From an uncultured Planctomycetia bacterium (GTDB lineage: Bacteria > Omnitrophota > Gorgyraeia > Gorgyraeales > Gorgyraeaceae): a stretch of DNA of 64,000 nucleotides. Positions 18,471 to 63,008 of the stretch are shown piece by piece. The DNA lies in the NCBI GenBank assembly GCA_964566255.1, contig CAZMID010000002.1, positions 30,923-94,922 of the forward strand, in the 5' to 3' direction. The translations under genes were made by a program, and so were the position numbers. Each line of letters begins with the position of its first letter. Within the stretch, counting starts at the first letter, position 1. The notes under the pieces are model-generated. The model searched no databases, was not told where the DNA came from, and saw nothing but the letters and a program-made list of their open reading frames with translations.

Positions 18471-18516
18471 TATAGAACGTCCCTACCTAATATATTGTAT
18501 ATAATATGGAGGATAT

Positions 18517-20993: not shown

Positions 20994-21003
20994 GGAGGAA
21001 GTC

Positions 21004-23904: not shown

Positions 23905-23920
23905 AACAAAGGAGAATCCC

Positions 23921-24532: not shown

Positions 24533-25261
24533 ATGAAGGTAACCTTACTTGTACCAACTTTAAACGAGATAGAAGGCATGAAGAAGATAATGCCTAGAAT
24601 AAAGAATGACTGGGTCGATCAGATTATTATTGTTGATGGAAATTCTACTGATGGTACATTTGAATATGCCAAGGGAAATGGATATTTTGTTTTTAGGCAA
24701 AAGGAAAAGGGAATACGACATGCGTATATTGAAGCCTTGAAATATATAGAAGGAGATGTAGTAATTACCTTTAGCCCAGATGGAAACTCGATCCCTGAAC
24801 TTATCCTGCCGCTGGTGGAAAAGATGAAAGAGGGCTATGATATGGTGATAGCTTCTCGCTATGCCAAAGGCGCAAAGAGTTATGATGATGACAGGGTTAC
24901 TGCTTTTGGAAATTTCATGTTTACTTCACTTATAAATCTCTTTTACAGGGCAAACTATACAGATGCAATGGTAATGTTTCGTGCATGGAAAAAAGATATT
25001 TTTTATGCACTAGATTTAGATAAGGAACGTAGTTACTCTTTAGAAGAAAAAATTTTTCGTACTAAAATAGGTATTGAGCCACTGCTGTCTATCAGGGCTG
25101 CCAAAAGAGGATTAAAATGCGCAGACATCCCAGGGGATGAACCATCTCGAATAGGCGGAGAGAGAAAATTACAGGTTTTTAAATGGGGTAGTGCCTATCT
25201 TTTTGAAGTTTTTAGGGAGTTATTTTTTGGTCTTAAAAGAAACAAAGGAGTCAAGCGATGA
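24533..25261 (+). CDS. GT2 glycosyltransferase, Dpm1/ArnC-like polyprenyl-phosphate sugar synthase (paralog 1 of 3)
   Basis: TLNEIEGM…IIIVDGNSTDGT…SPDGNS…ASRY is a GT-A fold with a DxD-like DGN. It is about 55% identical by eye to the ORFs at 37899 and 58396. Confidence 0.75.
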   Translation: MKVTLLVPTLNEIEGMKKIMPRIKNDWVDQIIIVDGNSTDGTFEYAKGNGYFVFRQKEKGIRHAYIEALKYIEGDVVITFSPDGNSIPELILPLVEKMKEGYDMVIASRYAKGAKSYDDDRVTAFGNFMFTSLINLFYRANYTDAMVMFRAWKKDIFYALDLDKERSYSLEEKIFRTKIGIEPLLSIRAAKRGLKCADIPGDEPSRIGGERKLQVFKWGSAYLFEVFRELFFGLKRNKGVKR

Positions 25262-26190
25262 AAATATTAGTTACAGGGGCAGCGGGTTATATAGGATCAG
25301 TTTTAACACCAAAACTATTGCAAAAAGGTCATAAGGTTATTGCTGTAGATAATTTTATGTATGGCCAAACCTCTTTATTAGATTCTTGTCATTATGATAA
25401 TCTGACTATTGTCCGCGGAGATGCTCGCGATAAAAAGTTAGTCACGAAACATCTCAGAGAGGTCGATGCTATCTTTCCTTTAGCTTGCCTTACAGGTGCA
25501 CCACTTTGTTCTAAGGATCCCTTTAATGCTAAGGCTGTCAATTTTGATGCGGTTAAGATGATTTTAGATTTACGCAGCAGAGGTCAAATAATAATCTTCC
25601 CTACTACAAACAGTGGTTATGGTATCGGGCAGAAGGGAGTCCATTGTACAGAGAGAACACCCTTAAATCCCGTTTCTTTTTATGGAAAACTAAAGGTAGA
25701 CCTAGAAAAAATGATTCTGGATTCCAAGAGTTGCATCACCTTAAGACTTGCTACTGCTTTTGGCATTAGCCCACGCATGAGGCTTGATCTCCTTGTCAAT
25801 GATTTTATTTATCGAGCTGTTATGGACCGGTATCTCGTTCTTTTTCAGGCACATTTTAAGAGGAATTACATACATGTGCAGGATGTTGCAAGGGCGTTTA
25901 TACATTCTTTAGAAAATTTTGATAGTATGAAAAACGAACCATACAATGTAGGTTTGAGTGATGCCAATTTAAGTAAATGGGAGCTATGTGAAGAGATAAA
26001 AAAACACCTTCCAGAATTTTATTTCACTGAATCTCAAATAGGAGAAGATCCTGATAAAAGGGATTATGTCGTAAGCAATGAGAAGATTGAAAAGACACGC
26101 TTTAAACCTGATGTGTCTCTTCAAATAGGTATTAGAGAGTTAATAAAGGGATATCAAATTATAAGAAGGAATCAGTTTTCCAATATTTAG
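25258..26190 (+). CDS. NAD-dependent epimerase/dehydratase family protein
   Basis: N-terminal ILVTGAAGYIGSVL Rossmann motif and an extended SDR fold. Confidence 0.7.
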   Translation: MKILVTGAAGYIGSVLTPKLLQKGHKVIAVDNFMYGQTSLLDSCHYDNLTIVRGDARDKKLVTKHLREVDAIFPLACLTGAPLCSKDPFNAKAVNFDAVKMILDLRSRGQIIIFPTTNSGYGIGQKGVHCTERTPLNPVSFYGKLKVDLEKMILDSKSCITLRLATAFGISPRMRLDLLVNDFIYRAVMDRYLVLFQAHFKRNYIHVQDVARAFIHSLENFDSMKNEPYNVGLSDANLSKWELCEEIKKHLPEFYFTESQIGEDPDKRDYVVSNEKIEKTRFKPDVSLQIGIRELIKGYQIIRRNQFSNI

Positions 26191-26195
26191 GTTTT

Positions 26196-27953
26196 ATGGC
26201 AGGAGTAAAAGAATTTTATAAAAGGGATAAAAGCCTCTTAATCATTTTTATGATTATGGTAGCTTATTATATACAGCATCTAGTAAGCTTTCGCTTAGGT
26301 ATAAATTTTGAAGAGTGCCGTGATCCAAATGCCTACCTTTTGGCTATGGAAGGCCATTTACCGTATCGAGATTTCGCCTGGTTTTATGGACCTTTTTCTT
26401 TCTTTGTCTATCCATTTATTATGAAGATCTTTGGTGTAAATTTGCTTGTTTTGAGACTTAGCTATATAATACTCGCTTCTTTTACTATACCCCTTGCTTA
26501 TTTTTTGGCTAGAAGGATACTACCTTATTTTTGGGCAGGAGTGGCTAGTTTTTTATCGATCGTCTTTTTTGATACACCTTATTATGCATTTAATCATATT
26601 TTCACTGTACTAGGAGGATTGGCGTGTTTGTTGATGGTTTGTAGATTTATAGAAAGAAATGAACAGATTTCCAATCTTTTTTGGGCAGGCATTTTTGCTG
26701 GTGTAGTAGTATTGACAAAACCTTTATTGTCAGGGCTTGTCTTATTTATAGCTGTTTCTTTATATCTATTGCTTTTCAGAGAATTAGGAGAATTAAAGAA
26801 GAGATTTAAGAATTATATGATCTTTGCTATAAGCATGTTCTTTTTGATTTTGCTGTATCTTTTGTACCTCTATTTCCAGACTACGCTTAAAGGTTTAACC
26901 ATAGCTTATCCATTTTTAGGTAGGGATTCACTGGTAGCTATTGAGAATATGCATGGGAATACAAAATTTTGGCCTTTGTTTTTGATGTTGGTCGAAAGGC
27001 TCAAAGGCATAATTCCAATAGCCGAGATTGTGAGCATATCCTCATTTAACGAGCTCAAAGGGCTTATGGTTGATTTTTTTGATGACTTTATTTTTCTCTT
27101 GCCTTTTATGGCATCTGGCCTAATCTTTTTAGTTTACATTGTTTCTAAATCCAACAAGATTACCCCATGGCTTAAGGAGAAAGTTCTTCTGGATAAAAAG
27201 TTCTTATTAATGTTTATCATTTTCTCTATTTTTATTTCTCTGGAAGGTATAAAGGTAGGCCACAGGTATAACAGGGCATATACCATGCAGGTTCCTTTCA
27301 TTCTCACCGTCTACATACTCTATTTTATAAAAAGCATTTGTTCTCGCAGGCGTATACTTACGGCAATTTTCGTAACATTATTTTTGTTTTATCTTAGTTT
27401 TTTGCATTTTTTTCGTTATCCGTACTCAATGATTAGAAAATACACTGAGCCTTTGAATCTTGATCGCGCTAGAATATTTCTTACGCTTCCAGAGAAGGAA
27501 TTATATCAATCCCTGGTGAGTCATCTTTCGGCTAATTTCAAAAAAGAAGACAGGATGGCTGTTATAGGTTATTCAGGCTGTTATTCTCAATTTAGTTTCT
27601 TAACTAAACAAAGAAATGTTTTTGAAGATCATGAATTTATATTTGCAAAGCTTAAATCTTTACTAAATACTTCATATAAAAGAGAGGAAGTAAAACCACA
27701 ATTGGCTTCTTTCGAAGATAGGATAATATCTAGAATGGAGAGAGAAAAACCCAAGATCATTTTGATTATAGTCAAAGATTCCTTACAGGATCAAAGGTTG
27801 AAAGATTACAAATTTTTATCCTCAAGGATAAAATCTTATATAAAAAGGAACTATTTATTTGATAAGGTATTTGGGCCGGCAGATATTCATGGACTTGGAG
27901 GCAGGATAGGCTGGATTAACCTATACAAATTAAAAGGAGCGTCACGATCATGA
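26196..27953 (+). CDS. Polytopic membrane protein, GT-C-like (ArnT/PMT-type glycosyltransferase or polymerase candidate)
   Basis: At least 11 predicted hydrophobic helices. An acidic first loop (…EECRDPNAYLLAMEG…) resembles the GT-C DE loop. There is a C-terminal soluble region. Confidence 0.35.
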   Translation: MAGVKEFYKRDKSLLIIFMIMVAYYIQHLVSFRLGINFEECRDPNAYLLAMEGHLPYRDFAWFYGPFSFFVYPFIMKIFGVNLLVLRLSYIILASFTIPLAYFLARRILPYFWAGVASFLSIVFFDTPYYAFNHIFTVLGGLACLLMVCRFIERNEQISNLFWAGIFAGVVVLTKPLLSGLVLFIAVSLYLLLFRELGELKKRFKNYMIFAISMFFLILLYLLYLYFQTTLKGLTIAYPFLGRDSLVAIENMHGNTKFWPLFLMLVERLKGIIPIAEIVSISSFNELKGLMVDFFDDFIFLLPFMASGLIFLVYIVSKSNKITPWLKEKVLLDKKFLLMFIIFSIFISLEGIKVGHRYNRAYTMQVPFILTVYILYFIKSICSRRRILTAIFVTLFLFYLSFLHFFRYPYSMIRKYTEPLNLDRARIFLTLPEKELYQSLVSHLSANFKKEDRMAVIGYSGCYSQFSFLTKQRNVFEDHEFIFAKLKSLLNTSYKREEVKPQLASFEDRIISRMEREKPKIILIIVKDSLQDQRLKDYKFLSSRIKSYIKRNYLFDKVFGPADIHGLGGRIGWINLYKLKGASRS

Positions 27954-28954
27954 TTATAAACAGAACCCCATTTCGTATTTCTTTTTTTGGTGGAGGAACA
28001 GATTATCCGGTCTGGTATAGAGAAAATGGCGGGGCAGTATTGGCTACAACGATAAACAAATATTGTTACCTGAATTGTCGATATTTACCGCCTTTTTTTG
28101 AACATAGATCCCGGGTTACCTATTCCAAAATAGAACTTATTAAGGATAAAGATGAAATTGTACATCCTTCTGTCAGAGAGTGTCTGCGATTTATGGAGAT
28201 AGACAGAGGCATAGAGATTCATCACGATGGAGATCTTCCTGCAAGGACAGGTGTGGGTTCAAGTTCTGCTTTTACTGTTGGATTGCTCCATTCACTTTAT
28301 GCATTAAAGGGAAGCATGCCTACTAAAAGGCAGTTGGCACTTGACGCCATCCATATCGAGCAACAAAGAATAGAGGAAAATGTTGGATCTCAGGATCAGG
28401 TACAGGTTGCCTTCGGCGGTTTTAATTTGATAAAATTTGGAGGAAAAGATCATATTAACGTTATGCCAATGACAATAAGTCATCAGAGATTGGAGCTTTT
28501 TCAAGATCACCTGATGCTTTTCTTTACAGGATTTTCTCGGACAGCTTCAGAGATTGCTGCAGAACAGATCAAGGTAACGCCCTATAAGAAAAAAGAATTA
28601 GGTCAGATGCATGAGATGGTAGGTGTTGCCTTGGAGATTCTTAACAGTAATGCTGATTTATTGGATTTTGGGAAGCTTATGCATGAAAATTGGCAGATTA
28701 AACGTAGTCTTTCCAATAAGATATCTACTTCTATAATTGACGAGATGTATTCTGCTGCTATTGAGGCTGGTGCTTTAGGTGGAAAGTTATTAGGCGCTGG
28801 CGGTGGTGGTTTTATGCTGATTTTTGCTAAGCCAGAGATCCAACCAAAAATAAAGGAAAAATTGAAAAAACTTTTATATGTACCTTTTAGATTTGAAGAT
28901 TCAGGAAGTCAGATTATATTTTATAGCCCGGATAATTCTTTTATAAGGGTATGA
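27950..28954 (+). CDS. GHMP-family sugar kinase, HddA-like (D-glycero-D-manno-heptose 7-phosphate kinase)
   Basis: MIINRTPFRISFFGGGTDYPVWYRENGGAVLATTINKY matches the HddA N-terminus. The GHMP motif PARTGVGSSSAF and C-terminal GAGGGGF are present. Confidence 0.68.
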   Translation: MIINRTPFRISFFGGGTDYPVWYRENGGAVLATTINKYCYLNCRYLPPFFEHRSRVTYSKIELIKDKDEIVHPSVRECLRFMEIDRGIEIHHDGDLPARTGVGSSSAFTVGLLHSLYALKGSMPTKRQLALDAIHIEQQRIEENVGSQDQVQVAFGGFNLIKFGGKDHINVMPMTISHQRLELFQDHLMLFFTGFSRTASEIAAEQIKVTPYKKKELGQMHEMVGVALEILNSNADLLDFGKLMHENWQIKRSLSNKISTSIIDEMYSAAIEAGALGGKLLGAGGGGFMLIFAKPEIQPKIKEKLKKLLYVPFRFEDSGSQIIFYSPDNSFIRV

Positions 28955-29679
28955 AGAGTAACATTGAGGTAAAAGATGTGGATGTAGTTATACTTTGCGG
29001 AGGTAAAGGAGAACGCTTAAAGTCTGTTATTAATGATTGCCCAAAGCCTATGGCTGATATTAATGGCAGTCCTTTTTTGGATATTCTTATTGATTATGTG
29101 GCAAGTTTTGGATTTAGACGTTTTATATTATGTACAGGTTTTATGGGCGGGACGATCAAACGATATTATCAAAAGAGAAAGGATCCTTTAGAGGTATTGT
29201 TTTCAGAAGAGAAAGAGGCTTTAGGTACGGCTGGAGCAATAAAAAATGCAGAAACCATTATAAGAAGCAATCCTTTCCTGGTGCTTAACGGTGATTCATT
29301 TTGTCGGATTGATTTAAAGGAATTTATTGATTTTTATTTTGCTAAAAAAGCAATGTTTTCTGTAGTTCTGGTTAAAGGTGCAAAAGGATCTCGTAAACAG
29401 TGTGGTGTAGTTAAGATAGGAGCATTGCAGCAGGTTATTAGATTTGACGAGAAGGTGGAGATAGTTGGTAGTAGTTTTTTTAATGCCGGAATTTATCTTT
29501 TTGAAAGAAGTATTTTTTCCATGATCCCAAGCAATAAAAATTTCTCTTTTGAATATGATTTGTTTCCTAAAATTATTGATAGACCTTTTTATGGATTCGT
29601 CAGTGAAGAAGAGATGGTAGACATTGGGACTCCTCAAAGATATATGAAAGCAAAGAAATATTTTGAAGGAATAAGATGA
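28951..29679 (+). CDS. Sugar-phosphate nucleotidyltransferase, HddC-like (heptose 1-phosphate guanylyltransferase candidate)
   Basis: VVILCGGKGERLKSV…PKPMADINGSPFL is an NTP-transferase motif. It is translationally coupled to the HddA-like kinase. Confidence 0.62.
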   Translation: MKSNIEVKDVDVVILCGGKGERLKSVINDCPKPMADINGSPFLDILIDYVASFGFRRFILCTGFMGGTIKRYYQKRKDPLEVLFSEEKEALGTAGAIKNAETIIRSNPFLVLNGDSFCRIDLKEFIDFYFAKKAMFSVVLVKGAKGSRKQCGVVKIGALQQVIRFDEKVEIVGSSFFNAGIYLFERSIFSMIPSNKNFSFEYDLFPKIIDRPFYGFVSEEEMVDIGTPQRYMKAKKYFEGIR

Positions 29680-30803
29680 AGACATCAAATAAACTTTTAA
29701 GGTGGGTTAGGACTATTAACTATCCGTCTTATGTAATATTTTTTGTAACAGCGAAATGTAATGCTAACTGCAAGATGTGTTTCTATAAAGACAACATGGC
29801 CAAAGCTTATCAAAAAGAGGAGGAACTGTCTGTAGAAGAATATGAAAAGATTAGTAAACGCATAAAACTAATAAATATATTAGGTATTTCTGGCGGTGAA
29901 CCATTTTTGAGAAAAGATCTGGCTGATATTGTGAAAGTTATTTATAAAAATTGCTCTCCTTTAGTGGTGGATCTTCCTACAAACGGATATTACGTGAAAG
30001 ATATTTTAAGGCAATCTGAGGAAATAGCCAAGTATTGTAAGGATATGGTTGTAGATGTGCAGCTTTCTATGGATGGGCCAGAAGAAATACACAATGAAAT
30101 ACGAGGCCTTAAGGATGGATTCAGCAGAGTAAGAGAGACTTATAAGGGTTTGATTGCATTGAGAAAAAAATATAACAATTTAAAAGTGAAGGCCTGTGTC
30201 GTATATTCTCATTACAATCAGGACTCTATTGAAGAGTTATTTGATATCCTCGGTAGGGATTTTAAGGATTTGGATAGAGTTGTATTTTCTGTAGTACATG
30301 GAAGCGTGAGTAATACTGAGGCATTTTCTTTTGATTGGAATAGATATTTTAAGATTTGCGATAGAATCCGGCATGGTTCAACTGTTAAAAGTATTGGAGA
30401 TTTTCATTCTATTTTTACCATTGCTTTAAGAATGGTTAAAAATGATTTCTTGAAAGAAGTATTAAGGACGAAGGACATGTATAGAAAGTGTGGCACAGGA
30501 AAAAGGGTGATTGTCGTTAATGAAACAGGAGCGGTTTTTCCTTGTGAGCCGCTTTGGCATTCGATAGGAGAATTAAGAAATAATAATTATGATATGGGGC
30601 AGATTTTGAATTCAAAGGAGATAAAGAATTTTTATAGAAAGATTGTTAAAGAAAAATGTAACTGTCATTGGGGACTGCCGTTATCAAACACACTGATTTA
30701 TAAACCAAGATATTATCCAAAGATATTGTTTGAGATGTTTAGGGTTATCAAAAGAAGCTTTGCGAAAGAGACAATACCTTATCAGAGTAAATTATGTCAA
30801 TAA
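29676..30803 (+). CDS. Radical SAM enzyme with C-terminal Cys-rich (SPASM/twitch-like) extension
   Basis: Has the CNANCKMC (Cx3Cx2C) cluster motif and the GGEPFLRKD SAM-binding motif. The C-terminus carries extra cysteines (…CGTGKRVIVVNETGAVFPCEPL…CNCHWG). Confidence 0.72.
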   Translation: MKTSNKLLRWVRTINYPSYVIFFVTAKCNANCKMCFYKDNMAKAYQKEEELSVEEYEKISKRIKLINILGISGGEPFLRKDLADIVKVIYKNCSPLVVDLPTNGYYVKDILRQSEEIAKYCKDMVVDVQLSMDGPEEIHNEIRGLKDGFSRVRETYKGLIALRKKYNNLKVKACVVYSHYNQDSIEELFDILGRDFKDLDRVVFSVVHGSVSNTEAFSFDWNRYFKICDRIRHGSTVKSIGDFHSIFTIALRMVKNDFLKEVLRTKDMYRKCGTGKRVIVVNETGAVFPCEPLWHSIGELRNNNYDMGQILNSKEIKNFYRKIVKEKCNCHWGLPLSNTLIYKPRYYPKILFEMFRVIKRSFAKETIPYQSKLCQ

Positions 30804-31651
30804 AATTAGATTTACATATTCATTCTAAATCGCGGGGAAGAGTTTTTATAAATGCTGAGCAATTGAGAGGGTCTTTGAAACGGAATAAACTGGACGGCGT
30901 AGCAATAACTAATTTTTTTGATATTTCCCATGCACTCTGGCTCAAAGAAAAGGTTAAAGAATATATTATTATAGTCGGCCAGGAGATATGGACAAAGGAT
31001 GGCCATATAGTGGCATTGGGCATCAAGAAGAGGATTGCTGATTTTCAAACTATCCAGGAAACCACCAACTGTATACATGAACAGGGTGGGATCGCTGTAG
31101 CTGTTCACCCCTTTTTATCTTTGGGAATAGGTAAGAAGGCAATGTTATTTCCTTCCATTGATGCAGTGGAGGTCTATAACGGGGTTATGGGAAATTTTGT
31201 TATTCCTAATTATTTAGCAGAAAGAATGGCTAAAAAAATGGGAATATCACAACTTGCTTCTACAGATACGACTGATCCAAAATTGATTGGCCGCAGTTAT
31301 ACTGAAATTATGACCAAAGATCCCAAATTGATACTGAAGAGTATTTGTTCAGGGGATGTTAGATTGTTTAAAAGGGCATTGCCATTTCCATTTATATTTG
31401 TTTTTAAGGGTATTTTTAAGTTCCAAGATGTAGAACCGTGTTCAACTCATGGTGTCCCTTGTTTTGTATGTGCAAAATCAATGACTGTAAGGTTGTTTAA
31501 AGAGAAATTCAAATGTTTCGATTGCGGCAAAATAGTATTTTCGCATATAGCCTGTTCTAACGGCCATTATATTTGTGTTCCGTGTATGATAAAAAGAGGC
31601 ACTGACATAAAAGACACTTATAGTATTGAGGAAAATATCCATGCGGCATAA
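30794..31651 (+). CDS. PHP-domain metal-dependent phosphoesterase with Cys-rich C-terminal tail
   Basis: N-terminal LDLHIHSKSRG is the PHP HxH motif. Later conserved His and Asp residues are present. The last roughly 70 aa have seven Cys (CSTHGVPCFVCAKS…CFDCGK…CSNGHYICVPC), suggesting a zinc ribbon. Confidence 0.6.
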   Translation: MSIKLDLHIHSKSRGRVFINAEQLRGSLKRNKLDGVAITNFFDISHALWLKEKVKEYIIIVGQEIWTKDGHIVALGIKKRIADFQTIQETTNCIHEQGGIAVAVHPFLSLGIGKKAMLFPSIDAVEVYNGVMGNFVIPNYLAERMAKKMGISQLASTDTTDPKLIGRSYTEIMTKDPKLILKSICSGDVRLFKRALPFPFIFVFKGIFKFQDVEPCSTHGVPCFVCAKSMTVRLFKEKFKCFDCGKIVFSHIACSNGHYICVPCMIKRGTDIKDTYSIEENIHAA

Positions 31652-32747
31652 AGTTAGTATAGGTAGATATCAGGATTTTGAGAAGATTTTGACTGATATC
31701 GGAGGAATAGAGAGGTTTGTAAAAAAGGGCGATAGGGTTTTTATAAAACCTAATATCTGTGTTCCCAAATCTTATGAGACCGGGACTACAACGAATCCAT
31801 ATTTGATTGAAAGATTAATAAGGTTGCTTAAAGATATAACTGGAAATATCCAGATAGGGGATGGTCCTATCCCTGCGTTCGGAAGATTATTTTCTGTGAA
31901 CCACCCTTTGATTTATGATATTGCAAAAAAATATGATATTGATGTAATCGATCTTAATTATGCAGATAAAAAAATAGTAGGATCTTTTGCTATCTCAGCA
32001 CCGCTTTTAGAGGCAGATGTTATAATAAATATGCCTGTCTTGAAGACACATGTGAGGGCAGGGATTTCGTGTTCTCTTAAAAATATGATGGGTGCTGTAC
32101 CTCTTCGCTTGAAACACGAGATGCATAAACATGGCCTTGATAATAGAATAGTCGAGCTTGCTAAGACCATAAGGCCACATCTAAATATCGTTGATGCTGT
32201 TATATGCCAAGAAGGGGATGGTCCTACTAATGGAACACCAAAGAAATTGGGTTTGGTTATTGCAGGTGATAATCAGGTTGCAGTGGATGGTTTGTGTTGT
32301 AAAATTATGGGAATAAATCCCCAAGGCATTCTACATCTCAAATGGGCAGAGAAGGAAAAGATAGGCCTTATTCGTAATTCAGAATATATTGGGTTTAAGT
32401 CTGAATTTATCTCCAAGTTTAAAATGCCCTCTATGTACAGGAATAGACTTATGCGACTTGCTATGCAAATAGCAGAAGGACCTATTATAAAATTATTTGA
32501 AAAAAATAATGGAATTTTGATAAATAAAGAAAAATGCATTAAATGCGGATTATGCGTAAAGGCCTGTCCTGTTAGTGCCATTAGCATGAACGCAGGAGAT
32601 TATCCTATTATAGATGATAAAAAGTGTATTTTATGTCTATGTTGCCATGAGGCGTGTTTAAATAATGCTATAGCGATTAAGAAAAAAGGAATTTCAGGAT
32701 CTGGGATAATAAAAGAAACACATAAAAAGGAGAAGGTTTATGCTTAA
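31641..32747 (+). CDS. DUF362 domain protein with C-terminal 2x[4Fe-4S] ferredoxin domain
   Basis: The DUF362-type N-terminus (…KGDRVFIKPNI…) is followed by CIKCGLCVKACP and CILCLCCHEACLNNA ferredoxin motifs. The start is placed at the Met preceded by GAGGAAAAT. The ORF track offers an upstream Met at 31626. Confidence 0.62.
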   Translation: MRHKVSIGRYQDFEKILTDIGGIERFVKKGDRVFIKPNICVPKSYETGTTTNPYLIERLIRLLKDITGNIQIGDGPIPAFGRLFSVNHPLIYDIAKKYDIDVIDLNYADKKIVGSFAISAPLLEADVIINMPVLKTHVRAGISCSLKNMMGAVPLRLKHEMHKHGLDNRIVELAKTIRPHLNIVDAVICQEGDGPTNGTPKKLGLVIAGDNQVAVDGLCCKIMGINPQGILHLKWAEKEKIGLIRNSEYIGFKSEFISKFKMPSMYRNRLMRLAMQIAEGPIIKLFEKNNGILINKEKCIKCGLCVKACPVSAISMNAGDYPIIDDKKCILCLCCHEACLNNAIAIKKKGISGSGIIKETHKKEKVYA

Positions 32748-33786: not shown

Positions 33787-33804
33787 AAGGTATAGGATAA
33801 AGTA

Positions 33805-36145: not shown

Positions 36146-36156
36146 GGGGATTTGAA

Positions 36157-37098: not shown

Positions 37099-37099
37099 C

Positions 37100-37885: not shown

Positions 37886-37898
37886 AAGGTAGATTCTA

Positions 37899-39541: not shown

Positions 39542-39542
39542 A

Positions 39543-41099: not shown

Positions 41100-41114
41100 A
41101 AGGAGTGTCTTCTC

Positions 41115-42566: not shown

Positions 42567-42570
42567 AACT

Positions 42571-43506: not shown

Positions 43507-43516
43507 AATTCTAAAA

Positions 43517-44530: not shown

Positions 44531-44549
44531 TAAGGATTGGAGTGAGGTT

Positions 44550-48300: not shown

Positions 48301-48303
48301 TTA

Positions 48304-51553: not shown

Positions 51554-51567
51554 AAAAGGGGATTATC

Positions 51568-55553: not shown

Positions 55554-55562
55554 AGGTAACTC

Positions 55563-56930
55563 GTGTTAGATATTTTATTAGTAAATCCTAGTAATCGACT
55601 TTCTCAATTTGGTGGGGTTTCCAAATATGCTACTATCGCTCAGCCATTAGGAATAACTATGCTTGCTGCTTACATAAGAAAGCATAGCTTTTCTGTTGAG
55701 ATCCTTGATGCAGAGGTTTTAGATCTTATCCCTGAGAGGGTTATAGACGAGATCGTGCGCCGCAACCCAAGATTTGTAGGTATCACTGCTTTTACGACAA
55801 AGATGACAGCAGCTAATAGAATATTTACTCTTTTAAAAGAAAAGGCACCTTATATAAAAACTATTATTGGAGGACATCATCCCTCTGCAATACCTGAAGA
55901 GACATTAAAAGAGTCAAATGTCGATTTTGTTGTTAAAGGTGAAGGGTACAAATCTATAGTAGATATACTTAGTGGGAGGAAAGACCCAATTCAAACAGCA
56001 GAACTGATGAAGGATATAAATGAACTTCCTCTTCCTGCGTGGGATTTGTTGCCTATGGATAAATATAGAGCTCATCACTGGCATACATGGGGTATTGGTC
56101 AGGCGAATTCATGTGCCTTGATCTATACATCTCTCGGATGCCCTTTTCAATGTAAATTCTGCAGTGTTTCTGTAGTCTATGGCAAGAGGATTTATAGAAA
56201 AAAGAGCCCTGAGCGCGTAATCCAGGATTTTGACGTGCTTTATAATAAGTATCACATTAAGCATATTGAGATTATAGACGATACATTTACCTTGGATAGG
56301 ACTCATGTAGAAAAGATATGTGACCTTTTGATTGAACGGAAGTACAATTTTAATATGTGGGCATTTTCAAGGACAGACACCACAGATCCTTATCTTATGG
56401 AGAAGATGAAAAAGGCAGGTATTAATTGGGTTTTTATGGGGATAGAAGCTGGTAATAGTAAAGTTTTGGATTCTGTGCTCAAAAAACAAAATTTGGAACA
56501 GATCCGTAATGCTATTGATATTGCGCATAAAGCTGGAATGAATGTCGGCACAAATTACATATTTGGCCTTCCTGATGACAGCTTTGAGACTATGCAGGAT
56601 ACACTTGATTTAGCATTGGAGCTTAATACAGAATGGAGTAATTTTTTTATAGCCATGCCTTATCCAGGGACAGAGATGTATGGTAAATCCAGAGCTGAAG
56701 ATTTACCTCAAGAATGGGAACAATATGGCTTCTTTGCACCGAATGCAAGGACATTACCTACGAGATATGTAAGTGGTGAGGATGTGGTGAGATTTAGAGA
56801 TAAGGCATTCCAGACTTTTTTTTCAAATCGGAATTATCAGGATATGATAGAAAAAAAGTTTGGCATGAAAAAATATATACAAGATATGCTGAAAAAGAAA
56901 ATCGGAAGGGATTATGAAACAAAGAGATAA
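55563..56930 (+). CDS. B12-binding-domain radical SAM enzyme (paralog of the ORFs at 41115 and 56914)
   Basis: GTG start. …IIGGHHPS…, KYRAHHWHTWG, TSLGCPFQCKFCSV. Confidence 0.74.
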   Translation: MLDILLVNPSNRLSQFGGVSKYATIAQPLGITMLAAYIRKHSFSVEILDAEVLDLIPERVIDEIVRRNPRFVGITAFTTKMTAANRIFTLLKEKAPYIKTIIGGHHPSAIPEETLKESNVDFVVKGEGYKSIVDILSGRKDPIQTAELMKDINELPLPAWDLLPMDKYRAHHWHTWGIGQANSCALIYTSLGCPFQCKFCSVSVVYGKRIYRKKSPERVIQDFDVLYNKYHIKHIEIIDDTFTLDRTHVEKICDLLIERKYNFNMWAFSRTDTTDPYLMEKMKKAGINWVFMGIEAGNSKVLDSVLKKQNLEQIRNAIDIAHKAGMNVGTNYIFGLPDDSFETMQDTLDLALELNTEWSNFFIAMPYPGTEMYGKSRAEDLPQEWEQYGFFAPNARTLPTRYVSGEDVVRFRDKAFQTFFSNRNYQDMIEKKFGMKKYIQDMLKKKIGRDYETKR

Positions 56931-58362
56931 TTTACTGATATTAAAGCCAGGCGCACAAGAGGAACTCTATCAAAAATTGAGTGAATCTTTATCAGGACTT
57001 GAGCCATCGTTATGGTCAGCATTGCTTGCTGCGTTCATAAGGGAGAAAGGCTTCAAGGTTAATATAGTAGATGCCGAAGTAGAATATGAAAGGTTGATAC
57101 CTGTTGTAACAGCCGAAATGCCAAAATTGGTTGCTATTGTAGCCTCTGGAACAAATCCTTCAGCATCTACAATGAATATGGTAGGCGTAAGAAATTTAGT
57201 CCAGGATATAAAAAGAGTGAATAAGGATTTACCTATTATATTAATAGGTCTTCATCCATCAGCATTACCCAGGCAGACTTTATTAGAAGAACCTGTGGAC
57301 ATGGTATGTGAGGGAGAGGGATTTTATACGTTATTGGATTTACTTTCAGATGTTGATTATAAAGATATTAAGGGTTTATGGTATAGAAAAGGAAAAGAGA
57401 TTCTTTCTAATCCTAGAGCTGAATTGGTTGACCCCAATGAACTACCTATGCCGGCATGGGAACTGATGTCTATGCATAAATATAGAGCTCATAATTGGCA
57501 TTGTTTTGGTCATACAGACGAAAGAAGTCCTTACGGAGTTATCTATACAAGCCTGGGTTGTCCTTTCAATTGTTCGTTCTGTTGCATAAATGCTATTTTT
57601 GGAGTACACAAAATACGATATAGAAACCCTAAGAAGGTCGTAGAGGAAATAGATTATCTTGTGAAGAACTATAATATTAAAAATTTTAAGATTATTGATG
57701 AAATGTTTGATTTAAATGATAACCATGTGATTGAGCTTTGCGATCTTCTTATAGAGAGGGACTATGGTTTAAACATATGGGCTTATACTAGAGTCGATAC
57801 AATGAATGAGAAGAAATTGAAAAGAATGAAACAGGCTGGGATAAATTGGCTGGGCATAGGTTTTGAGTCTGGTAATAGAGGAATTCGAGATACCGCTACT
57901 AAGGGTAGATTTGATAATGAGAAAATGAGACAGGCTGTAAAGATGATAAGAGATGCAGATATATATCTGGGTGGGAATTTTATCTTTGGCCTTCCCGGTG
58001 ATTCCCTTGAAACCATGCAGCAGACCTTAGATTTAGCAAAGGAATTTAATTGTGAATATGCAAATTTCTATGTTGCTATGGCTTATCCCGGATCCAAACT
58101 TTATGAAGAAGCCGTGGCTAAAAATCTTCCTTTGCCTGATTCATGGCTTGGTTATTCACAGTTTAGTTACGAGACACAACCTTTACCGACAGAATCTCTA
58201 TCTCCTTCTGAAATCCTGCGTTTCAGGGATAAGGCCTTTAATGAATTCTATAGCAGCAAATCCTATCAGGATATGATTTTGAAGAAATTTGGAGAAGAGA
58301 CACTTCAGCATGTAAAAGATATGCTTAAACATAGATTAAAAAGGCAATTATTGAGTGATTAG
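56914..58362 (+). CDS. B12-binding-domain radical SAM enzyme (paralog of the ORFs at 41115 and 55563)
   Basis: …LIGLHPS…, KYRAHNWHCFG, TSLGCPFNCSFCCI. It overlaps the upstream paralog by 17 nt. Confidence 0.75.
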   Translation: MKQRDNLLILKPGAQEELYQKLSESLSGLEPSLWSALLAAFIREKGFKVNIVDAEVEYERLIPVVTAEMPKLVAIVASGTNPSASTMNMVGVRNLVQDIKRVNKDLPIILIGLHPSALPRQTLLEEPVDMVCEGEGFYTLLDLLSDVDYKDIKGLWYRKGKEILSNPRAELVDPNELPMPAWELMSMHKYRAHNWHCFGHTDERSPYGVIYTSLGCPFNCSFCCINAIFGVHKIRYRNPKKVVEEIDYLVKNYNIKNFKIIDEMFDLNDNHVIELCDLLIERDYGLNIWAYTRVDTMNEKKLKRMKQAGINWLGIGFESGNRGIRDTATKGRFDNEKMRQAVKMIRDADIYLGGNFIFGLPGDSLETMQQTLDLAKEFNCEYANFYVAMAYPGSKLYEEAVAKNLPLPDSWLGYSQFSYETQPLPTESLSPSEILRFRDKAFNEFYSSKSYQDMILKKFGEETLQHVKDMLKHRLKRQLLSD

Positions 58363-58395
58363 AATATATAAATCAATTAAAAAGAAAGGTAGAAT

Positions 58396-59100
58396 ATGAA
58401 AGTAGCATTGTTGATCTTAACGCTTAACGAAATCGAGGCAGTAACTCAAGTTATGCCTAGAGTCAAGAGGGAATGGGTTGATGAAATTATTTTTGTGGAT
58501 GGGAATTCTACTGATGGGACGATAGACTATATAAAGGAGCACAATTACGGTTTATTGTTAGAAAAAAAACCTGGGGCACGAGAGGCCATGGTAGAAGCCA
58601 TCAATAATATGGAGAGTGACGTAGTCATTACTTTTAGTCCAGATGGTAATTGTATTCCCGAAGTTATTCCTAAATTGATTAAAAAGATGCAAGAAGGTTA
58701 TGATATGGTTATTGCCTCGCGCTACGCAGAGGGAGCAAAGAGTTACGATGATACGCGTATAACTGCTTTTGGGAATTGGATGTTCACAACGCTAATAAAT
58801 ATTTTATATGGAGCTAAATATAGCGATACTATGGGTGTTTATCGCATATTTAAAAAGAATCTTATAAAAGATTTAGATTTAGACAAGGATATTACATATA
58901 CAACCCCTGAAAAATTATTCAGGACAAAACTGGGATGGGATCCTATATTGTCTGTTCGGGCAGCTAAAAGAAAATTAAAGGTTTCCTATGTTCCTGCTGA
59001 TGAACCTTTGAGGATTGGTGGCAAACCGAAACTGCAGGTATTAAAATGGGGAGCTGGATATTTATTTCAAGTTATAAGAGAAAGATTTTTGTGGCGTTAG
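58396..59100 (+). CDS. GT2 glycosyltransferase, Dpm1/ArnC-like (paralog 3 of 3)
   Basis: LTLNEIEAVTQVMPRVKREWVDEIIFVDGNSTDGT…SPDGNC…ASRYAEGAKSYDD is collinear with the ORFs at 24533 and 37899, through to the C-terminal …RIGG…KLQV.KWG motif. Confidence 0.75.
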   Translation: MKVALLILTLNEIEAVTQVMPRVKREWVDEIIFVDGNSTDGTIDYIKEHNYGLLLEKKPGAREAMVEAINNMESDVVITFSPDGNCIPEVIPKLIKKMQEGYDMVIASRYAEGAKSYDDTRITAFGNWMFTTLINILYGAKYSDTMGVYRIFKKNLIKDLDLDKDITYTTPEKLFRTKLGWDPILSVRAAKRKLKVSYVPADEPLRIGGKPKLQVLKWGAGYLFQVIRERFLWR

Positions 59101-59135
59101 GGTTGACATATATAGGCATGAGGAGGCAATAAGAG

Positions 59136-61454
59136 ATGTTTTTTAGTTCGACCAAAGATTTGGAGAAAAAAATAGTAAACCTTTTTTACTTTTGTGTATA
59201 TTTCTTCATATCTTTGGTATTTTTAGCCATTCTTTATCGACCAATAACAAGAAGTTTATTTAGCCAAGACCTGTGGTGGTTTAATCCTTCTATAGCTCAA
59301 TTTACCGAAGGCCTGTCCTTTGGTAAACTCCTGTTTTTTCTTTTTGACGTTAGACCTTTATGGTATGGATATGCATTGCTTAAGGTATACGATTTTCTTA
59401 TGTTAACGTTGTTTGGTCCTCAAGTTAAATATTTTGTTTTCTTTTCACTAATAATTCACGCTACTTCTTCATATTTACTTTTTTGCGTTTCCAGAAAAAT
59501 TGGCCAGGGTTTTCGAGTAAGTGTTCTTTCCGCATTGATGTATTTGACAGCTTTTAGCCATTTTCACGCCTACATATGGCCGATGGCCTTCCAACATCTT
59601 GTGGTTATTTTTTCCACTTTATTGGTCTTTAATTTTTATTTAAAGACAGATCAGCTTATTGATAGAGGAGCTTCTTTTCGAGCGTATTGGTGGCTAACTC
59701 TGGGGACAGGTTTTTTACTTTCCTTTTGCCGAGCAAATATCTTATTGCTGCCCATAGTTATATTGGTACATATCTTATTCTGTTCAAGGGATGACAAAGA
59801 TAGGTTTAAAAAATATAGCATATGGTTACCTCTTTTTGTAATCTATTTGGGTTATCCTCTAGTTACCTTGACCTATACAGGCGACCCTAAGCTTAGTATG
59901 TTTTTTGAGAAGATAGATATTTCGGCGAAATATTCTGTTCTATTTATATCAGGGATATTTTTACTGTTTTTATTTAGGGGTATATTACAATTTTGGCAGA
60001 ACTATAAAATTAGCAGGGTATCAAAGCGGGTTTTGATAGCAATAGCGCTTATTTCTGTTTTTTTGTTGGTATCAGGTGTAAGAGATATAGGTCTTTTGAC
60101 ATCTATGAAGAATTTACTGTTGCCATATAATCTTATGGTGCCGTTTGTTGGCTTCCTAATGTCTTTTCTTCATCCGATTCAAAACGCCCTATTAATTAAT
60201 TCATCTTCTGTGTATCATTTTATTCCGCCGCAGGTGGATGTATTTAGTTTTATTTTGAGTTTGTTATTAGTTGCCATATTCATAAAGATCTGTGTAGATA
60301 AAAATAGGGGGCTTGTTATATTTTTAGCCTGGTATCTTGTCAGTTTTCTATATTTAAATTTGAGGACTCCTATTGCGTCACGGCATTTTATATATATCTC
60401 TCCGGTTGTTTGCATAATCTTTTGCTCTGTTTTGATATATATATATGATTTCTTTGTTGAAAAAACTAGAATAAAGGCAATACATAAGGAGTTCCTGCTC
60501 TTATTGATATTTGTTGCTCTTTTTATTCCAAATATGCTGGCAATAAGGTTTGAGATCTTTAGGGGTAGAATTGCGAATAACTTTTTAATATATGATTATG
60601 TAAGAATGGTAAATATTATCAAGGAGGATTTAACAAAAAGCACTGATATTAAGACCTTAAATCCAGAAAGGCTCTATATCAATAATGTGAAACCAATGCC
60701 TTATGAATTGTGGTATAAGGATGTATGGTCTGATGTTGATCATCCACCTGATCCTTTGAAATATGATAATTTTCGTTATGTTTTAGCTCAAATCTTTGGT
60801 AGTAATTCTATGCTAGGTACCAATATCAACCAGATTCCAGTTAAGGGTGAGGATTATATGCTTTATTTCGCAGACAAAGAAAGGATAAATAATACTAAAG
60901 GTCAGAATATAGAGCCATTTTTTTACTTTTTTCAAGAGGCAGTAAAAAATATGGAGCTTAAGCATTACAAGGTAGCAGATGATTTATTTAAAAGGGCTGT
61001 ACGACAAAGACCTTTTTTACTAAATTATATTCTCTCAAAATATAGACTAGAAGATTTAAAATGGATTACTAATGATCGTCAGATGCGTTCATGGGTTAAC
61101 AAGATAGCCTTAGGTTATCATAGAGGAGGAGAGACCCCTCGAAAGATTACCTATATCAGCACTATTATGAATAAGGAGCTCGACAGTTATATTGAATGCC
61201 TATTTTATCTTTCTTACTTGAGGTACCTATCTAGCGAGACTAAGGCGAGCAAGTATTGGCTTTATCAAATAGGCTTTATCGAAAGGGATTATGAAAAGAT
61301 ATACCATCATTTAAGTCAGGTACATACAATTAAATCCGATAAAGAGATATTATCTTTTTTAAAAAGTTTTGATAGTTCTTCGTTATATAAAGCACGGGAC
61401 TGTCTTACTTATTATGAGTTGGAGAGGTTCCTTTTTAAAATGATGCTTAATTAG
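59136..61454 (+). CDS. Large polytopic membrane protein with about 300-aa C-terminal soluble helical domain (GT-C-like transferase or polymerase candidate)
   Basis: At least 12 hydrophobic helices over about 450 aa. The C-terminal Lys- and Tyr-rich helical domain is TPR-like. There are no recognisable catalytic motifs beyond the topology. Confidence 0.35.
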   Translation: MFFSSTKDLEKKIVNLFYFCVYFFISLVFLAILYRPITRSLFSQDLWWFNPSIAQFTEGLSFGKLLFFLFDVRPLWYGYALLKVYDFLMLTLFGPQVKYFVFFSLIIHATSSYLLFCVSRKIGQGFRVSVLSALMYLTAFSHFHAYIWPMAFQHLVVIFSTLLVFNFYLKTDQLIDRGASFRAYWWLTLGTGFLLSFCRANILLLPIVILVHILFCSRDDKDRFKKYSIWLPLFVIYLGYPLVTLTYTGDPKLSMFFEKIDISAKYSVLFISGIFLLFLFRGILQFWQNYKISRVSKRVLIAIALISVFLLVSGVRDIGLLTSMKNLLLPYNLMVPFVGFLMSFLHPIQNALLINSSSVYHFIPPQVDVFSFILSLLLVAIFIKICVDKNRGLVIFLAWYLVSFLYLNLRTPIASRHFIYISPVVCIIFCSVLIYIYDFFVEKTRIKAIHKEFLLLLIFVALFIPNMLAIRFEIFRGRIANNFLIYDYVRMVNIIKEDLTKSTDIKTLNPERLYINNVKPMPYELWYKDVWSDVDHPPDPLKYDNFRYVLAQIFGSNSMLGTNINQIPVKGEDYMLYFADKERINNTKGQNIEPFFYFFQEAVKNMELKHYKVADDLFKRAVRQRPFLLNYILSKYRLEDLKWITNDRQMRSWVNKIALGYHRGGETPRKITYISTIMNKELDSYIECLFYLSYLRYLSSETKASKYWLYQIGFIERDYEKIYHHLSQVHTIKSDKEILSFLKSFDSSSLYKARDCLTYYELERFLFKMMLN

Positions 61455-61481
61455 GAATAAGATTAGAATATAAAGGAGGGT

Positions 61482-63008
61482 ATGTTGAAAACTTCTTCAA
61501 AGATTTTTTATACTTATTTTTGCGTAATTTTTATTGTGACTTTTTTATCCTATTACCCTTCGTTATTCTTATTTTTTGCAGGACTTGATATAGCCAAGTA
61601 TTTTCTAGAAACGCAGAAGAGCAATCTTCGTGAATTAATGACAAACTATCTTTCTTGGAGCGTAGTAGCTGAATATTCCAGAGGAGATACATACTCATTT
61701 AGACCCCTAGGTATTATGCTTTTGGGTTTAGAGAGGTATTTTTTTGGTGCTCGATATATTTTATGGCAAATACTTCATATTATAATGCATCTAGGTGTTG
61801 TGTTGTGCTTGTATAGGCTTTTACTTAGGATTCAGCGGCATATATTTGCATGGCTTTTATGTTTTCTTTTTTCTGTTTATGCTATCTTTGCGCGCGTTAT
61901 AACATGGGCAAACTTTGGTAACTATTTTCTTTTTCTGACACTTGTTTTAACAGCACTTTATCACTTATATAAGTATACCTTTGAAAGAGAGAAGGCAAGG
62001 TATAGTTTATTTTGGGTATCTTTGAGTATGTTATTAGGCTGCTTTCTTTATGAGACAGGAGTTGTTTATTGTCTGTTGTTTGTTACATATCTGGCAATAT
62101 TAAGTTTTCAAGAGAAATCGTCGCGTAAAAAGAGAGACTATGCTTACTTGATTATTTTAATACCTGCATCTGTGTTTTTATTAGCATATTCTCTTAATCT
62201 CTACCTTGGAAGAAGCTGGTTGATGGCATTTGAAGCAAAGAGGATCCTTAGTTTTCAGAATGTTTTGGAAACAATAACTACAATACCAAAGATATTTTTG
62301 TTGTGGGTCGGAAGGGGATTTTTTCTTGATTATACAGGAGGTAGGTTTACTTCTTCTGTATTTACTTTGTTAATAAGATATGGGATGTTGATTTTCTCTA
62401 TCCTTTATATATCTGTAGCACTGGGTGCCTCAAGAAGCTCTTTGAAGAAGAATTGGTTATTTATGACTTTAGTTTTTAGTATGATGATAGTTCATGTGGC
62501 TGTTAATTGTTTTGCTCGCATGGGGACGCACGGCATAGATTATATGTTAGCCACAAAGCATACTAATTATATGTTTTGGGCATTTCTTATTACTTTTGTA
62601 TATTCAGCAGTAGATTTTGAAAAGCTGAAGACCTACAGTAGAAAGATATATTATGTCGGTACAATAGGATTATTTATGTTTATATTGTTTAATGTAGTCG
62701 CAACATATGGTATCAATAGAATTATTGCAGCTGAGCAGAAACCTGTACGACTGTATACAGATCAGCTTTATAGGTTTATAGAAGAGCATCGTAGAGAGGA
62801 GGATTTTTCTTTTGCTGTAGCTTCATCTATCCCGTGGACTTACACTCTTACACAGGGATACATTGACCCCAAAGGAGAAATGGTTAAAGGAGTAGATAGA
62901 GAATTTCCTGTCCATGAGATCTATTTCGGGGAATATTATAGTAAAAAGAGGCCCAAATATGTATTAAGGTATGACCTTGAAAAAAATGAAATCAAAGTGA
63001 GAAAATGA
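61482..63008 (+). CDS. Polytopic membrane protein (ArnT/PMT-like GT-C candidate)
   Basis: About 11-13 hydrophobic helices. A short periplasmic-type C-terminal domain. AAGGAGG RBS 6 nt upstream of the ATG. Confidence 0.35.
   Translation: MLKTSSKIFYTYFCVIFIVTFLSYYPSLFLFFAGLDIAKYFLETQKSNLRELMTNYLSWSVVAEYSRGDTYSFRPLGIMLLGLERYFFGARYILWQILHIIMHLGVVLCLYRLLLRIQRHIFAWLLCFLFSVYAIFARVITWANFGNYFLFLTLVLTALYHLYKYTFEREKARYSLFWVSLSMLLGCFLYETGVVYCLLFVTYLAILSFQEKSSRKKRDYAYLIILIPASVFLLAYSLNLYLGRSWLMAFEAKRILSFQNVLETITTIPKIFLLWVGRGFFLDYTGGRFTSSVFTLLIRYGMLIFSILYISVALGASRSSLKKNWLFMTLVFSMMIVHVAVNCFARMGTHGIDYMLATKHTNYMFWAFLITFVYSAVDFEKLKTYSRKIYYVGTIGLFMFILFNVVATYGINRIIAAEQKPVRLYTDQLYRFIEEHRREEDFSFAVASSIPWTYTLTQGYIDPKGEMVKGVDREFPVHEIYFGEYYSKKRPKYVLRYDLEKNEIKVRK

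Follow-up and report, generated by a model that had tools for sequence, protein, structure and literature searches.

Three Dpm1-like glycosyltransferases and three GT-C-like membrane proteins in a surface-glycan locus of Candidatus Omnitrophota

The window analyzed here, a 64,000-nucleotide stretch of contig CAZMID010000002.1 from an uncultured bacterium of the Omnitrophota, carries genes for three short Dpm1-like glycosyltransferases of family GT2 (GT2-1, GT2-2 and GT2-3) and for three large GT-C-like membrane proteins (GTC1, MEM2 and MEM3). The locus probably specifies three branches of extracytoplasmic glycosylation, which run in parallel and are of the GtrB/ArnC-to-GT-C type. The paralogy and family affinity of the GT2 proteins, the GT-C fold or homology of the membrane proteins, the coupling of GT2 and GT-C genes across genomes and the cassette structure of the locus are direct results of the analysis. 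An earlier note on this DNA had proposed three lipid-linked branches that arose by duplication. The presence of three GT2s together with three GT-Cs makes the three branches a reasonable inference, but the duplication origin is not supported.

All six genes lie on the + strand at the coordinates first assigned to them. GT2-1 (24533..25261, 242 aa) is a Dpm1-like protein without a transmembrane (TM) helix and is the predicted polyprenyl-phosphate sugar synthase of cassette I; GT2-2 (37899..38570, 223 aa) is that of cassette II, and the Dpm1-like GT2-3 (58396..59100, 234 aa) is predicted to be a third such synthase. The three proteins are collinear over their full length, as proposed, with pairwise identities of 61% (GT2-1 and GT2-3), 53% (GT2-1 and GT2-2) and 47% (GT2-2 and GT2-3) and blastp E-values of 1e-79 to 1e-107. 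GT2-2 is the most divergent and lacks a 12-residue segment of the other two. The motifs TLNEI, MPR(I/V)K, VDGxSTDGT, SPDGN, ASRYxxGAKSYDD and RIGG, quoted in the earlier note, are present, and most of them are at least 90% conserved among 123 family members. The C-terminal motif IPGDEPxRIGGxRK resembles the P...R..G.SK motif of the Dpm1 family. Each protein matches Pfam Glycos_transf_2 (PF00535) well above the cut-off of 23.3 bits (63.8 for GT2-1, 83.1 for GT2-2 and 66.2 for GT2-3). The likeness to Dpm1, ArnC and GtrB holds, as the top matches in the PDB and NCBIfam are all polyprenyl-phosphate sugar synthases. The five best NCBIfam matches of every paralog are AglJ, a haloarchaeal dolichyl-phosphate hexose transferase, PgfS, ArnC and PpgS, and a profile of the three paralogs finds the dolichyl-phosphate mannose synthase (DPMS) of P. 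furiosus (5mlz, E 4.5e-19), ArnC (3.6e-12) and GtrB (7e-11) in the PDB, the next matches being much weaker. The predicted function of the GT2s is the transfer of a sugar from a nucleoside diphosphate (NDP)-sugar to polyprenyl phosphate.

The genomic context of GT2 relatives points in the same direction. The family of the GT2s is large and strongly conserved (6,341 matches, the top 120 at 68-78% identity), and GT2-1 lies near its consensus, with relatives at 60-78% identity in the Omnitrophota and other phyla. The family spreads over the Omnitrophota, the Elusimicrobia, metagenome-assembled genomes (MAGs) labelled Planctomycetales, delta- and gammaproteobacterial MAGs and others. Open reading frames (ORFs) were called in 80 genome loci and compared with the window proteins; related loci are cited below by L numbers. 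For 29 of 70 GT2 relatives, the directly adjacent gene on the same strand encodes a protein of 380 aa or more with five or more TM segments, and such proteins account for 9% of the ORFs in the same loci. Pfam assigns these membrane neighbours to DUF6798 (12), PMT_2 (7), YfhO (3), PMT (2) and others, and PMT_2 proteins are found in GT2-2-type loci too. GT2 relatives therefore adjoin GT-C-type membrane proteins in other genomes, which supports the Dpm1/GT-C reading. Furthermore, a DedA/VTT-type gene lies directly upstream of a GT2-1-type gene in seven loci (L060, L063, L065, L146, L148, L154 and L168), mostly on contigs labelled proteobacterial. Its product has 264-279 aa and 4-6 predicted TM segments, and the L060 copy (9210-10001) contains a VTT/DedA domain (PF09335, 1.9e-24). 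The DedA family includes C55-P flippases (PMC12893004), and the upstream protein is a candidate carrier-lipid flippase or recycler for this kind of system. Because both GT-C and DedA neighbours recur around GT2 relatives, they support a family that makes a polyprenyl-phosphate-linked donor for GT-C enzymes.

A simpler arrangement occurs in L023 (10001-12656) and about 20 similar Omnitrophota loci (L020, L024, L037, L053 and others), where the GT2 is paired only with a multi-TM DUF6798 protein of about 630 aa and is followed by housekeeping genes for GpsA, homoserine dehydrogenase, a PALP enzyme, a CoaB-like protein, iPGM and CstA. This suggests that the GT2/DUF6798 pair is a conserved core two-gene glycosylation unit.

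The three membrane proteins have the GT-C-like topology proposed for them. GTC1 (26196..27953, 585 aa, about 13 TM segments) is a PMT_2-type GT-C glycosyltransferase, whose Pfam PMT_2 score of 31.0 bits exceeds the cut-off of 26.1. MEM2 (59136..61454, 772 aa) has a GT-C fold and a C-terminal TPR-like domain (about residues 590-771) and belongs to a rare family. MEM3 (61482..63008, 508 aa) is a probable GT-C membrane protein of a large family that has no Pfam model (3,148 cluster representatives at E <=1e-3). Their positions are as claimed: the GTC1 gene lies two genes past GT2-1, with a 60% identical ortholog at the same position in L012, and the MEM2 and MEM3 genes come straight after GT2-3. 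A crude Kyte-Doolittle count gives about 13, 10 and 8 hydrophobic segments for GTC1, MEM2 and MEM3, respectively, and the AlphaFold2 models are helical bundles. Pairwise comparison, which the earlier note had called for, finds no blastp similarity among the three; they are related at the profile level only. Shallow alignments reveal no relationship by hhalign, and deeper ones are needed: the MEM3 family (65 sequences) then matches the GTC1/PMT_2-type alignment with 94.6% probability (E 6.8e-8), the MEM2 family matches the PMT_2-type alignment with 76.5% (E 2.2e-5), and the MEM3 and MEM2 families match each other with 48%. All three matches fall on the same N-terminal core. Candidates for the acidic residue that GT-C enzymes conserve in their first extracytoplasmic loop are D45, invariant in the MEM2 family, and D69, which like R74 and P75 is invariant or nearly so in the MEM3 family; E40, E41 and D44 follow TM1 in GTC1. 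Sequence searches of the PDB with the single sequences and with the MEM2, MEM3 and GTC1/PMT_2-type family profiles gave nothing useful. The structural matches include AftA, AftB and AftD, and Pmt4, Pmt1 and Pmt2 are among the best. Because no Wzy, WaaL, Wzx or SEDS protein is found among the structural matches, the GT-C assignment holds, firmly for GTC1 and MEM2 and with moderate confidence for MEM3. An identity of the membrane proteins as Wzy, WaaL or Wzx is rejected on the same ground, none of them modelling confidently as a polymerase, ligase or flippase of these kinds.

Distant MEM3 relatives have mixed contexts, which add no independent support, and one of them lies among sugar and B12 radical-SAM genes. 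In L077, the gene after a GT2-3 ortholog encodes a protein of 998 aa and about 17 TM segments (10727-13720), perhaps a fused or extended GT-C, which shares 25% identity with MEM3 over 506 residues.

The best structural matches also bring in a rival explanation, namely that the GT-Cs are protein O-glycosyltransferases of the PMT/TMTC type that put exotic sugars on periplasmic or surface proteins. The PMT_2 match of GTC1 and the presence of Pmt4, Pmt1 and Pmt2 are in line with such an activity, as is the C-terminal TPR-like domain of MEM2, since eukaryotic TMTC O-mannosyltransferases join a PMT_2-type core to TPR repeats. However, PMT_2 also takes in ArnT-like lipid A and glycan transferases, the locus lies between nucleotide-sugar and Wzi/Wza genes, and no gene for a candidate acceptor protein is present. 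Protein O-glycosylation is thus an unlikely role for these enzymes.

Several observations weigh against three branches of the GtrB/ArnC-to-GT-C type. The NCBIfam scores of the GT2s (24-116 bits) are far below the equivalog cut-offs, as with AglJ (92-116 bits against a cut-off of 325), so the GT2s fall in no characterized orthologous group. The DxD site is not canonical: S-P-D-G-N aligns with D-A-D-L-Q of DPMS, and only the second Asp is retained. This sequence does not vary among the three paralogs and is conserved to at least 90% across the 123 family members. No hydrophobic segment is found in the three GT2s by Kyte-Doolittle analysis, so that there is no C-terminal TM anchor, and a hydrophobic-moment scan for an amphipathic anchor helix gave none that is clear and was uninformative. 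Among the membrane proteins, the AlphaFold2 model of MEM3 is poor (pLDDT 58), and no GT2 is seen near two of its distant relatives, which adjoin PIG-L and Glu_cyclase_2 genes. In the window itself, GT2-2 has no adjacent GT-C, and neither a dedicated flippase gene (GtrA, SMR or MATE), a DedA gene nor any gene for assembly of an acceptor glycan is found among the ORFs.

The peculiarities of the GT2s can also be taken to mean that they are ordinary Leloir transferases acting in the cytoplasm on a soluble or undecaprenyl-diphosphate (Und-PP)-linked acceptor, next to the membrane proteins by coincidence. The lack of a TM anchor, the variant DxD and weak, lower-ranked matches to the GpgS, MftF-like and PglI families would agree with this. 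However, the five top family matches and all significant PDB matches down to E 3e-10 are polyprenyl-phosphate sugar synthases, GT-C neighbours are enriched and DedA neighbours recur around GT2 relatives, and GT-C enzymes need a lipid-phosphate-linked donor, which no other enzyme encoded here would make. These points make a Leloir role for the GT2s very improbable.

The lack of chain-assembly genes bears on a different rival explanation. Pfam searches covered the + strand ORFs of at least 100 aa between 116 and 63008, apart from two small ones (1887 and 2020) that do not belong to the locus. Among these, no match is found to phosphoglycosyltransferases (PGTs; Bac_transf, Glycos_transf_4), Wzx (Polysacc_synt), Wzy_C, GtrA, Wzc/Wzz or other glycosyltransferase families, and no small multi-TM ORF occurs in the window. 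The precomputed Pfam annotations of the next 10 kb list no PGT, Wzx, Wzy or GtrA, nor any flippase gene. The absence of a classical PGT, Wzx or Wzy reported before is thus confirmed within the window, and the gene set for a Wzx/Wzy-dependent, group 1-like capsule is incomplete there, with Wzi and a Wza-like protein alone. In about 50 kb of glycan genes there is no Leloir glycosyltransferase, PGT, Wzx, Wzy or ABC transporter, and the annotations of the following 10 kb list none of these either; in the same gene string, Wzi and a Wza-like protein of 966 aa are encoded, and AftA, AftB and AftD are among the structural matches of the membrane proteins. This could mean that the GT-Cs jointly polymerize a periplasmic glycan from three polyprenyl-phosphate monosaccharides, as the Emb/Aft enzymes do in mycobacterial arabinan assembly, for export through the Wza-like protein. 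However, the window is a fragment of a contig, and the backbone genes may lie elsewhere in the genome. In addition, no primer or initiating enzyme is evident, and the lone GT2/DUF6798 pair among housekeeping genes in about 20 Omnitrophota loci fits decoration better. We therefore regard joint polymerization as improbable. The full form of this idea, a glycan built without Leloir chain-building enzymes, in which three C-methylated or C-branched lipid-linked sugars are polymerized by unclassified GT-Cs and exported by Wza, is distinctly unlikely. If it were true, a didermic, ultra-small candidate phylum would follow an assembly logic like that of arabinan, MEM3 would be the founder of a new and large family of GT-Cs, and lipid-linked sugars, instead of nucleotide-linked ones, might be the substrates of the radical-SAM enzymes.

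The GT2 and GT-C genes are embedded in a complex arrangement of tailoring genes. As the earlier note had stated, radical-SAM, epimerase and aminotransferase genes lie between the GT2 copies, and family searches agree. There are ten radical-SAM genes in 29 kb (seven B12-binding, two SPASM and one HemN-like), together with SDR (short-chain dehydrogenase/reductase) genes for epimerases/dehydratases, a DegT aminotransferase, a class I aminotransferase, a LeuA-like catalytic domain, a GHMP kinase and a nucleotidyltransferase. Three two-subunit thiamine diphosphate (ThDP) enzymes are also encoded, two of them pyruvate dehydrogenase (PDH)-E1-like alpha/beta pairs and one a split transketolase-like pair. 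These genes, all on the + strand, form three units. The first piece of cassette I (24533-29679) contains GT2-1, the GalE-like NAD-dependent epimerase/dehydratase SDRa (25258..26190; Pfam Epimerase, 101.8 bits), which overlaps GT2-1 by 4 bp, GTC1, and a GHMP sugar kinase (HddA-/fucokinase-like) with a sugar-1-phosphate nucleotidyltransferase (HddC/ManC-like) at 27950..29679, a predicted entry into an NDP-sugar. Its second piece (42571..46828, four genes) encodes SDRc (42571), a PDH-E1-like ThDP enzyme (alpha/beta, 43517/44550) and a DegT/RfbH-like pyridoxal/pyridoxamine phosphate enzyme that is closest to RfbH (45602). Between the two pieces lies cassette II (29676-42566). Its upstream half (29676..37885, eight genes) consists of a SPASM radical-SAM gene (29676), a PHP/CehA-like metallohydrolase (30794), a DUF362 and 4Fe-4S dicluster protein (31626), a second SPASM radical-SAM gene (32740), a B12 radical-SAM gene (33805), the split transketolase-like ThDP enzyme (35285/36157) and an SDR (37100); its downstream half (38570..42566, three genes) consists of the GDP-fucose-synthase-like SDRb (38570) and two B12 radical-SAM genes (39543 and 41115). 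The tailoring part of cassette III (51568..58362, six genes) comprises a class I aminotransferase (51568), a LeuA/homocitrate-synthase-like catalytic domain of 384 aa without a regulatory domain (52733-53887), the second E1-like alpha/beta pair (53872/54666) and two B12 radical-SAM genes (55563 and 56914). A HemN-like radical-SAM gene (46825) and two B12 radical-SAM genes (48304 and 50117), together spanning 46825..51553, are outside the assigned cassettes.

Across 160 related loci, two of these units recur as conserved cassettes, each tied to one GT2 subtype. GT2-1 has orthologs elsewhere of up to 78% identity, and GT2-2 forms a subfamily of its own, with orthologs of the same short length at 64-80% in a metagenome scan; in both cases these are closer than the paralogs in the window. 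The closest ortholog of GT2-3, and the only close one seen, is 66% identical and lies in L077. Cassette co-occurrence was counted in loci of at least 8 kb, 10 of the GT2-2 type and 75 of the GT2-1 type. Orthologs of 33805, 36157 and 37100 accompany GT2-2-type genes in 8 of 10 loci, those of 32740 in 7, of 35285 in 6, and of 38570 and 39543 in 5, with upstream-half orthologs in 4-8 of the 10, whereas orthologs of 25258, 42571, 43517, 44550, 45602 and 56914 occur in none. With GT2-1-type genes the counts, out of 75, are 23 for 27950, 22 for 25258 (present at >=45% identity), 19 for 56914, 15 for 42571, 14 for 45602, 12 for 43517 and 11 for 44550; orthologs of 32740, 33805, 37100 and 38570 are absent (0/75), and those of 35285 (6/75), 29676 (1/75) and 36157 (1/75) are rare. 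Orthologs of the upstream half (50-79%) are collinear beside GT2-2 orthologs in L091, L093, L094, L096, L099, L101, L102 and L106, the downstream half is likewise collinear in L091, L093, L094, L101 and L102, and the order from 29676 to 42566, with GT2-2 in the centre, is reproduced in L091, L093, L094, L096, L101, L102 and L106. Cassette I, split in the window, is contiguous in L009, L010, L012, L057, L120, L131, L133 and L153, where orthologs of its second piece (47-80%) adjoin GT2-1-type genes; in L009 and L120 a MEM2-like GT-C lies beside it. The B12 radical-SAM gene of cassette I in other genomes has 56914 as its nearest relative in the window. The third unit (51568-59100 and the GT-C) is found in the same order in a single locus, L077, at 66-80% identity, ending in the GT2-3 ortholog and a large TM protein.

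These comparisons speak against two claims about the make-up and origin of the locus. The GT2 genes are not module borders, as GT2-2 sits in the middle of cassette II and the cassette borders lie elsewhere; because gaps are at most 35 bp from 18517 onward, no transcriptional module borders are visible either. Duplication in place followed by divergence also fails, as each GT2 is closer to orthologs elsewhere (78, 80 and 66%, respectively), and in-situ triplication is rejected for the same reason. Because the GT2-1-type and GT2-2-type gene sets are mutually exclusive elsewhere but interleaved in the window, the locus is a mosaic of pre-existing cassettes, two of them conserved, with three GT2-centred units that are not delimited by the GT2 genes. 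Adjacency is no guide to the GT-C partner of each GT2.

A few features of the tailoring genes stand apart from this. The metallohydrolase and DUF362 genes (30794-32747) sit between the two SPASM radical-SAM genes, and an ortholog of 30794 is seen only in L106. The product of 46825-48300 passes the NCBIfam hemN equivalog cut-off (332.8 against 324.95) yet lies amid sugar-tailoring genes, where its role may be that of a HemN-like methyltransferase and not of a coproporphyrinogen oxidase; relatives of 46825 (48%) and 48304 (42%) occur together in L157 and L160. The triplet of LeuA-like domain, class I aminotransferase and E1-like pair is kept in L077 and L150, hinting at a sugar substituent derived from a keto acid.

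The gene content can be arranged into a four-step scheme, of which we infer every step beyond the family assignments, including the polyprenyl-phosphate acceptor, the order of tailoring, the pairing of GT2s with GT-Cs, the sugar identities and the final acceptor. In the first step, the GHMP kinase, the nucleotidyltransferase, SDRs and the DegT/RfbH-type enzyme would build an unusual nucleotide sugar in the cytoplasm. The B12 radical-SAM enzymes probably C-methylate the sugar. The analogy with AviB1/AviB2 and Pau11/Pau12 makes it probable that the ThDP enzymes, whether E1-like or transketolase-like, attach a two-carbon branch; for the E1-like AviB1/AviB2, the proposed reaction is the addition of a pyruvate-derived acetyl branch at C-4 (PMC4753412). 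In the second step, the peripheral, TM-less Dpm1-like GT2 would load the sugar onto polyprenyl phosphate. The GT2-coupled SDR might act before or after loading, by analogy with ORF13 of C. youngae O2, where a three-component periplasmic glycosylation system includes a cytoplasmic SDR epimerase that acts on the lipid-linked sugar (PMC11127046). In the third step, a transporter encoded outside the window would flip the lipid-linked monosaccharide. Finally, GTC1, MEM2 or MEM3 would pass the sugar, at the periplasmic face, to an acceptor that is made elsewhere. With Wzi and Wza genes adjoining, a polysaccharide or lipopolysaccharide (LPS) glycan is the likeliest acceptor, and it is probably exported through the Wza/Wzi proteins.

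The region is part of a one-strand surface-glycan locus of more than 60 kb of Candidatus Omnitrophota. All credible window genes are on the + strand, GC content is about 36% and the GC skew is strongly positive. A protein identical to GT2-1 is found on JGI 3300009374 Ga0118720_1000442 and related ENA scaffolds, and its nearest relatives are annotated in Candidatus Omnitrophota MAGs. The first 11 kb of the window are housekeeping genes (DnaK/DnaJ, an AccD-like protein, an ABC ATPase, two GGDEF proteins, a ROK kinase and an LptD-like protein). Just upstream of the glycan locus (5784-8478 and 9462-11549) stand a tandem pair of GGDEF diguanylate cyclases, of which one has a GAF domain, and the LptD-like outer-membrane protein. 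The glycan locus begins at 11559 with UDP-sugar dehydrogenases, an RmlA/RmlB/cupin-like set and several SDRs. After a gap of 258 bp at 18258-18517, the gene string is unbroken to the window end with gaps of at most 35 bp, and beyond it runs at least 10 kb further with DegT, SDR, methyltransferase, GNAT and more radical-SAM genes (L007). The outer-membrane export genes (19431..24526, gaps of at most 16 bp) belong to the same packed string. They encode a Wzi-like protein (19431; Pfam Wzi, 197.6 bits) and a Wza-like outer-membrane polysaccharide export (OPX) protein with Poly_export and SLBB domains (21004-23904), which is unusually long with 966 aa and six SLBB/SLBB_2 repeats. Between the latter and GT2-1 lies a gene (23921-24526) whose product, of 201 aa, carries a TM segment at both ends and has no match in Pfam or NCBIfam. 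A role as a DPM3-like anchor or flippase was dropped, as a homolog lies upstream of none of 78 related GT2 genes (0/78); its topology recalls a short Wzz/polysaccharide co-polymerase (PCP)-like protein, an unproven candidate.

With this locus, the GtrB/ArnC-to-GT-C logic would reach the Omnitrophota, which are known almost exclusively through metagenomes. The locus also draws attention to a very large, strongly conserved and uncharacterized subfamily of TM-less Dpm1-like synthases (more than 6,000 matches) and flags the MEM3-type family, with more than 3,000 cluster representatives and no Pfam model, as probable GT-C glycosyltransferases. Two conserved cassettes combining ThDP, B12 radical-SAM and sugar-nucleotide enzymes are defined targets for the discovery of novel branched or C-methylated sugars together with their biosynthetic enzymes. 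The nesting of the cassettes indicates that the locus diversified by insertion of whole synthase-plus-tailoring units and not by local duplication.

The same synthase-then-GT-C scheme operates in GtrA/GtrB/GtrC of Shigella and Salmonella, in CsbB/GtcA/YfhO of Firmicutes and in pentofuranose addition in Citrobacter youngae O1/O2 (PMC11127046). The coupling of an SDR gene to the synthase gene resembles that of ORF13 in C. youngae O2 (PMC11127046), and YfhO- and PMT_2-type GT-Cs adjoin relatives of the window GT2s. In contrast to these three-component systems, the window has no flippase gene, its synthases lack the one or two TM helices of GtrB/ArnC, three branches lie in one string with GT-Cs from unclassified families, and the branches are tied to large radical-SAM/ThDP cassettes instead of a common UDP-sugar. 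ArnC and ArnT are the undecaprenyl-phosphate-L-Ara4FN synthase and the lipid A transferase, respectively. The GT2s differ from ArnC in scoring 32-47 bits against its equivalog cut-off of 529 and in lacking TM helices, and the window has no ArnA formyltransferase, ArnD or ArnE/F. Over the catalytic domain the best sequence matches are P. furiosus DPMS (5mlz)/eukaryotic DPM1, the archaeal AglJ and the mycobacterial PpgS; human DPM1 and PpgS are likewise short and TM-less and feed GT-C enzymes. However, the first Asp of the DxD is replaced in the GT2s (S-P-D-G-N), no DPM3-like anchor is found, and their donor sugar is probably not GDP-mannose. The tailoring genes are similar to those of the branched-chain sugar pathways of AviB1/AviB2, Pau11/Pau12 and YerE (PMC4753412), in that genes for sugar dehydratases, aminotransferases and reductases stand next to those for PDH-E1-like ThDP enzymes of two subunits. 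This arrangement would fit a two-carbon branch on a keto-sugar. Unlike the AviB1/AviB2-type pathways, the window is a Gram-negative-type surface-glycan locus with three ThDP pairs and seven B12 radical-SAM genes. What is new is the string of three branches without flippase or chain-assembly genes and with ten radical-SAM genes in 29 kb, as well as the TM-less synthase subfamily with a variant DxD, the unclassified GT-C families and the nested cassette architecture. The extracytoplasmic GtrB/GT-C scheme itself is already known, and the locus is an unusually elaborate, mosaic form of it.

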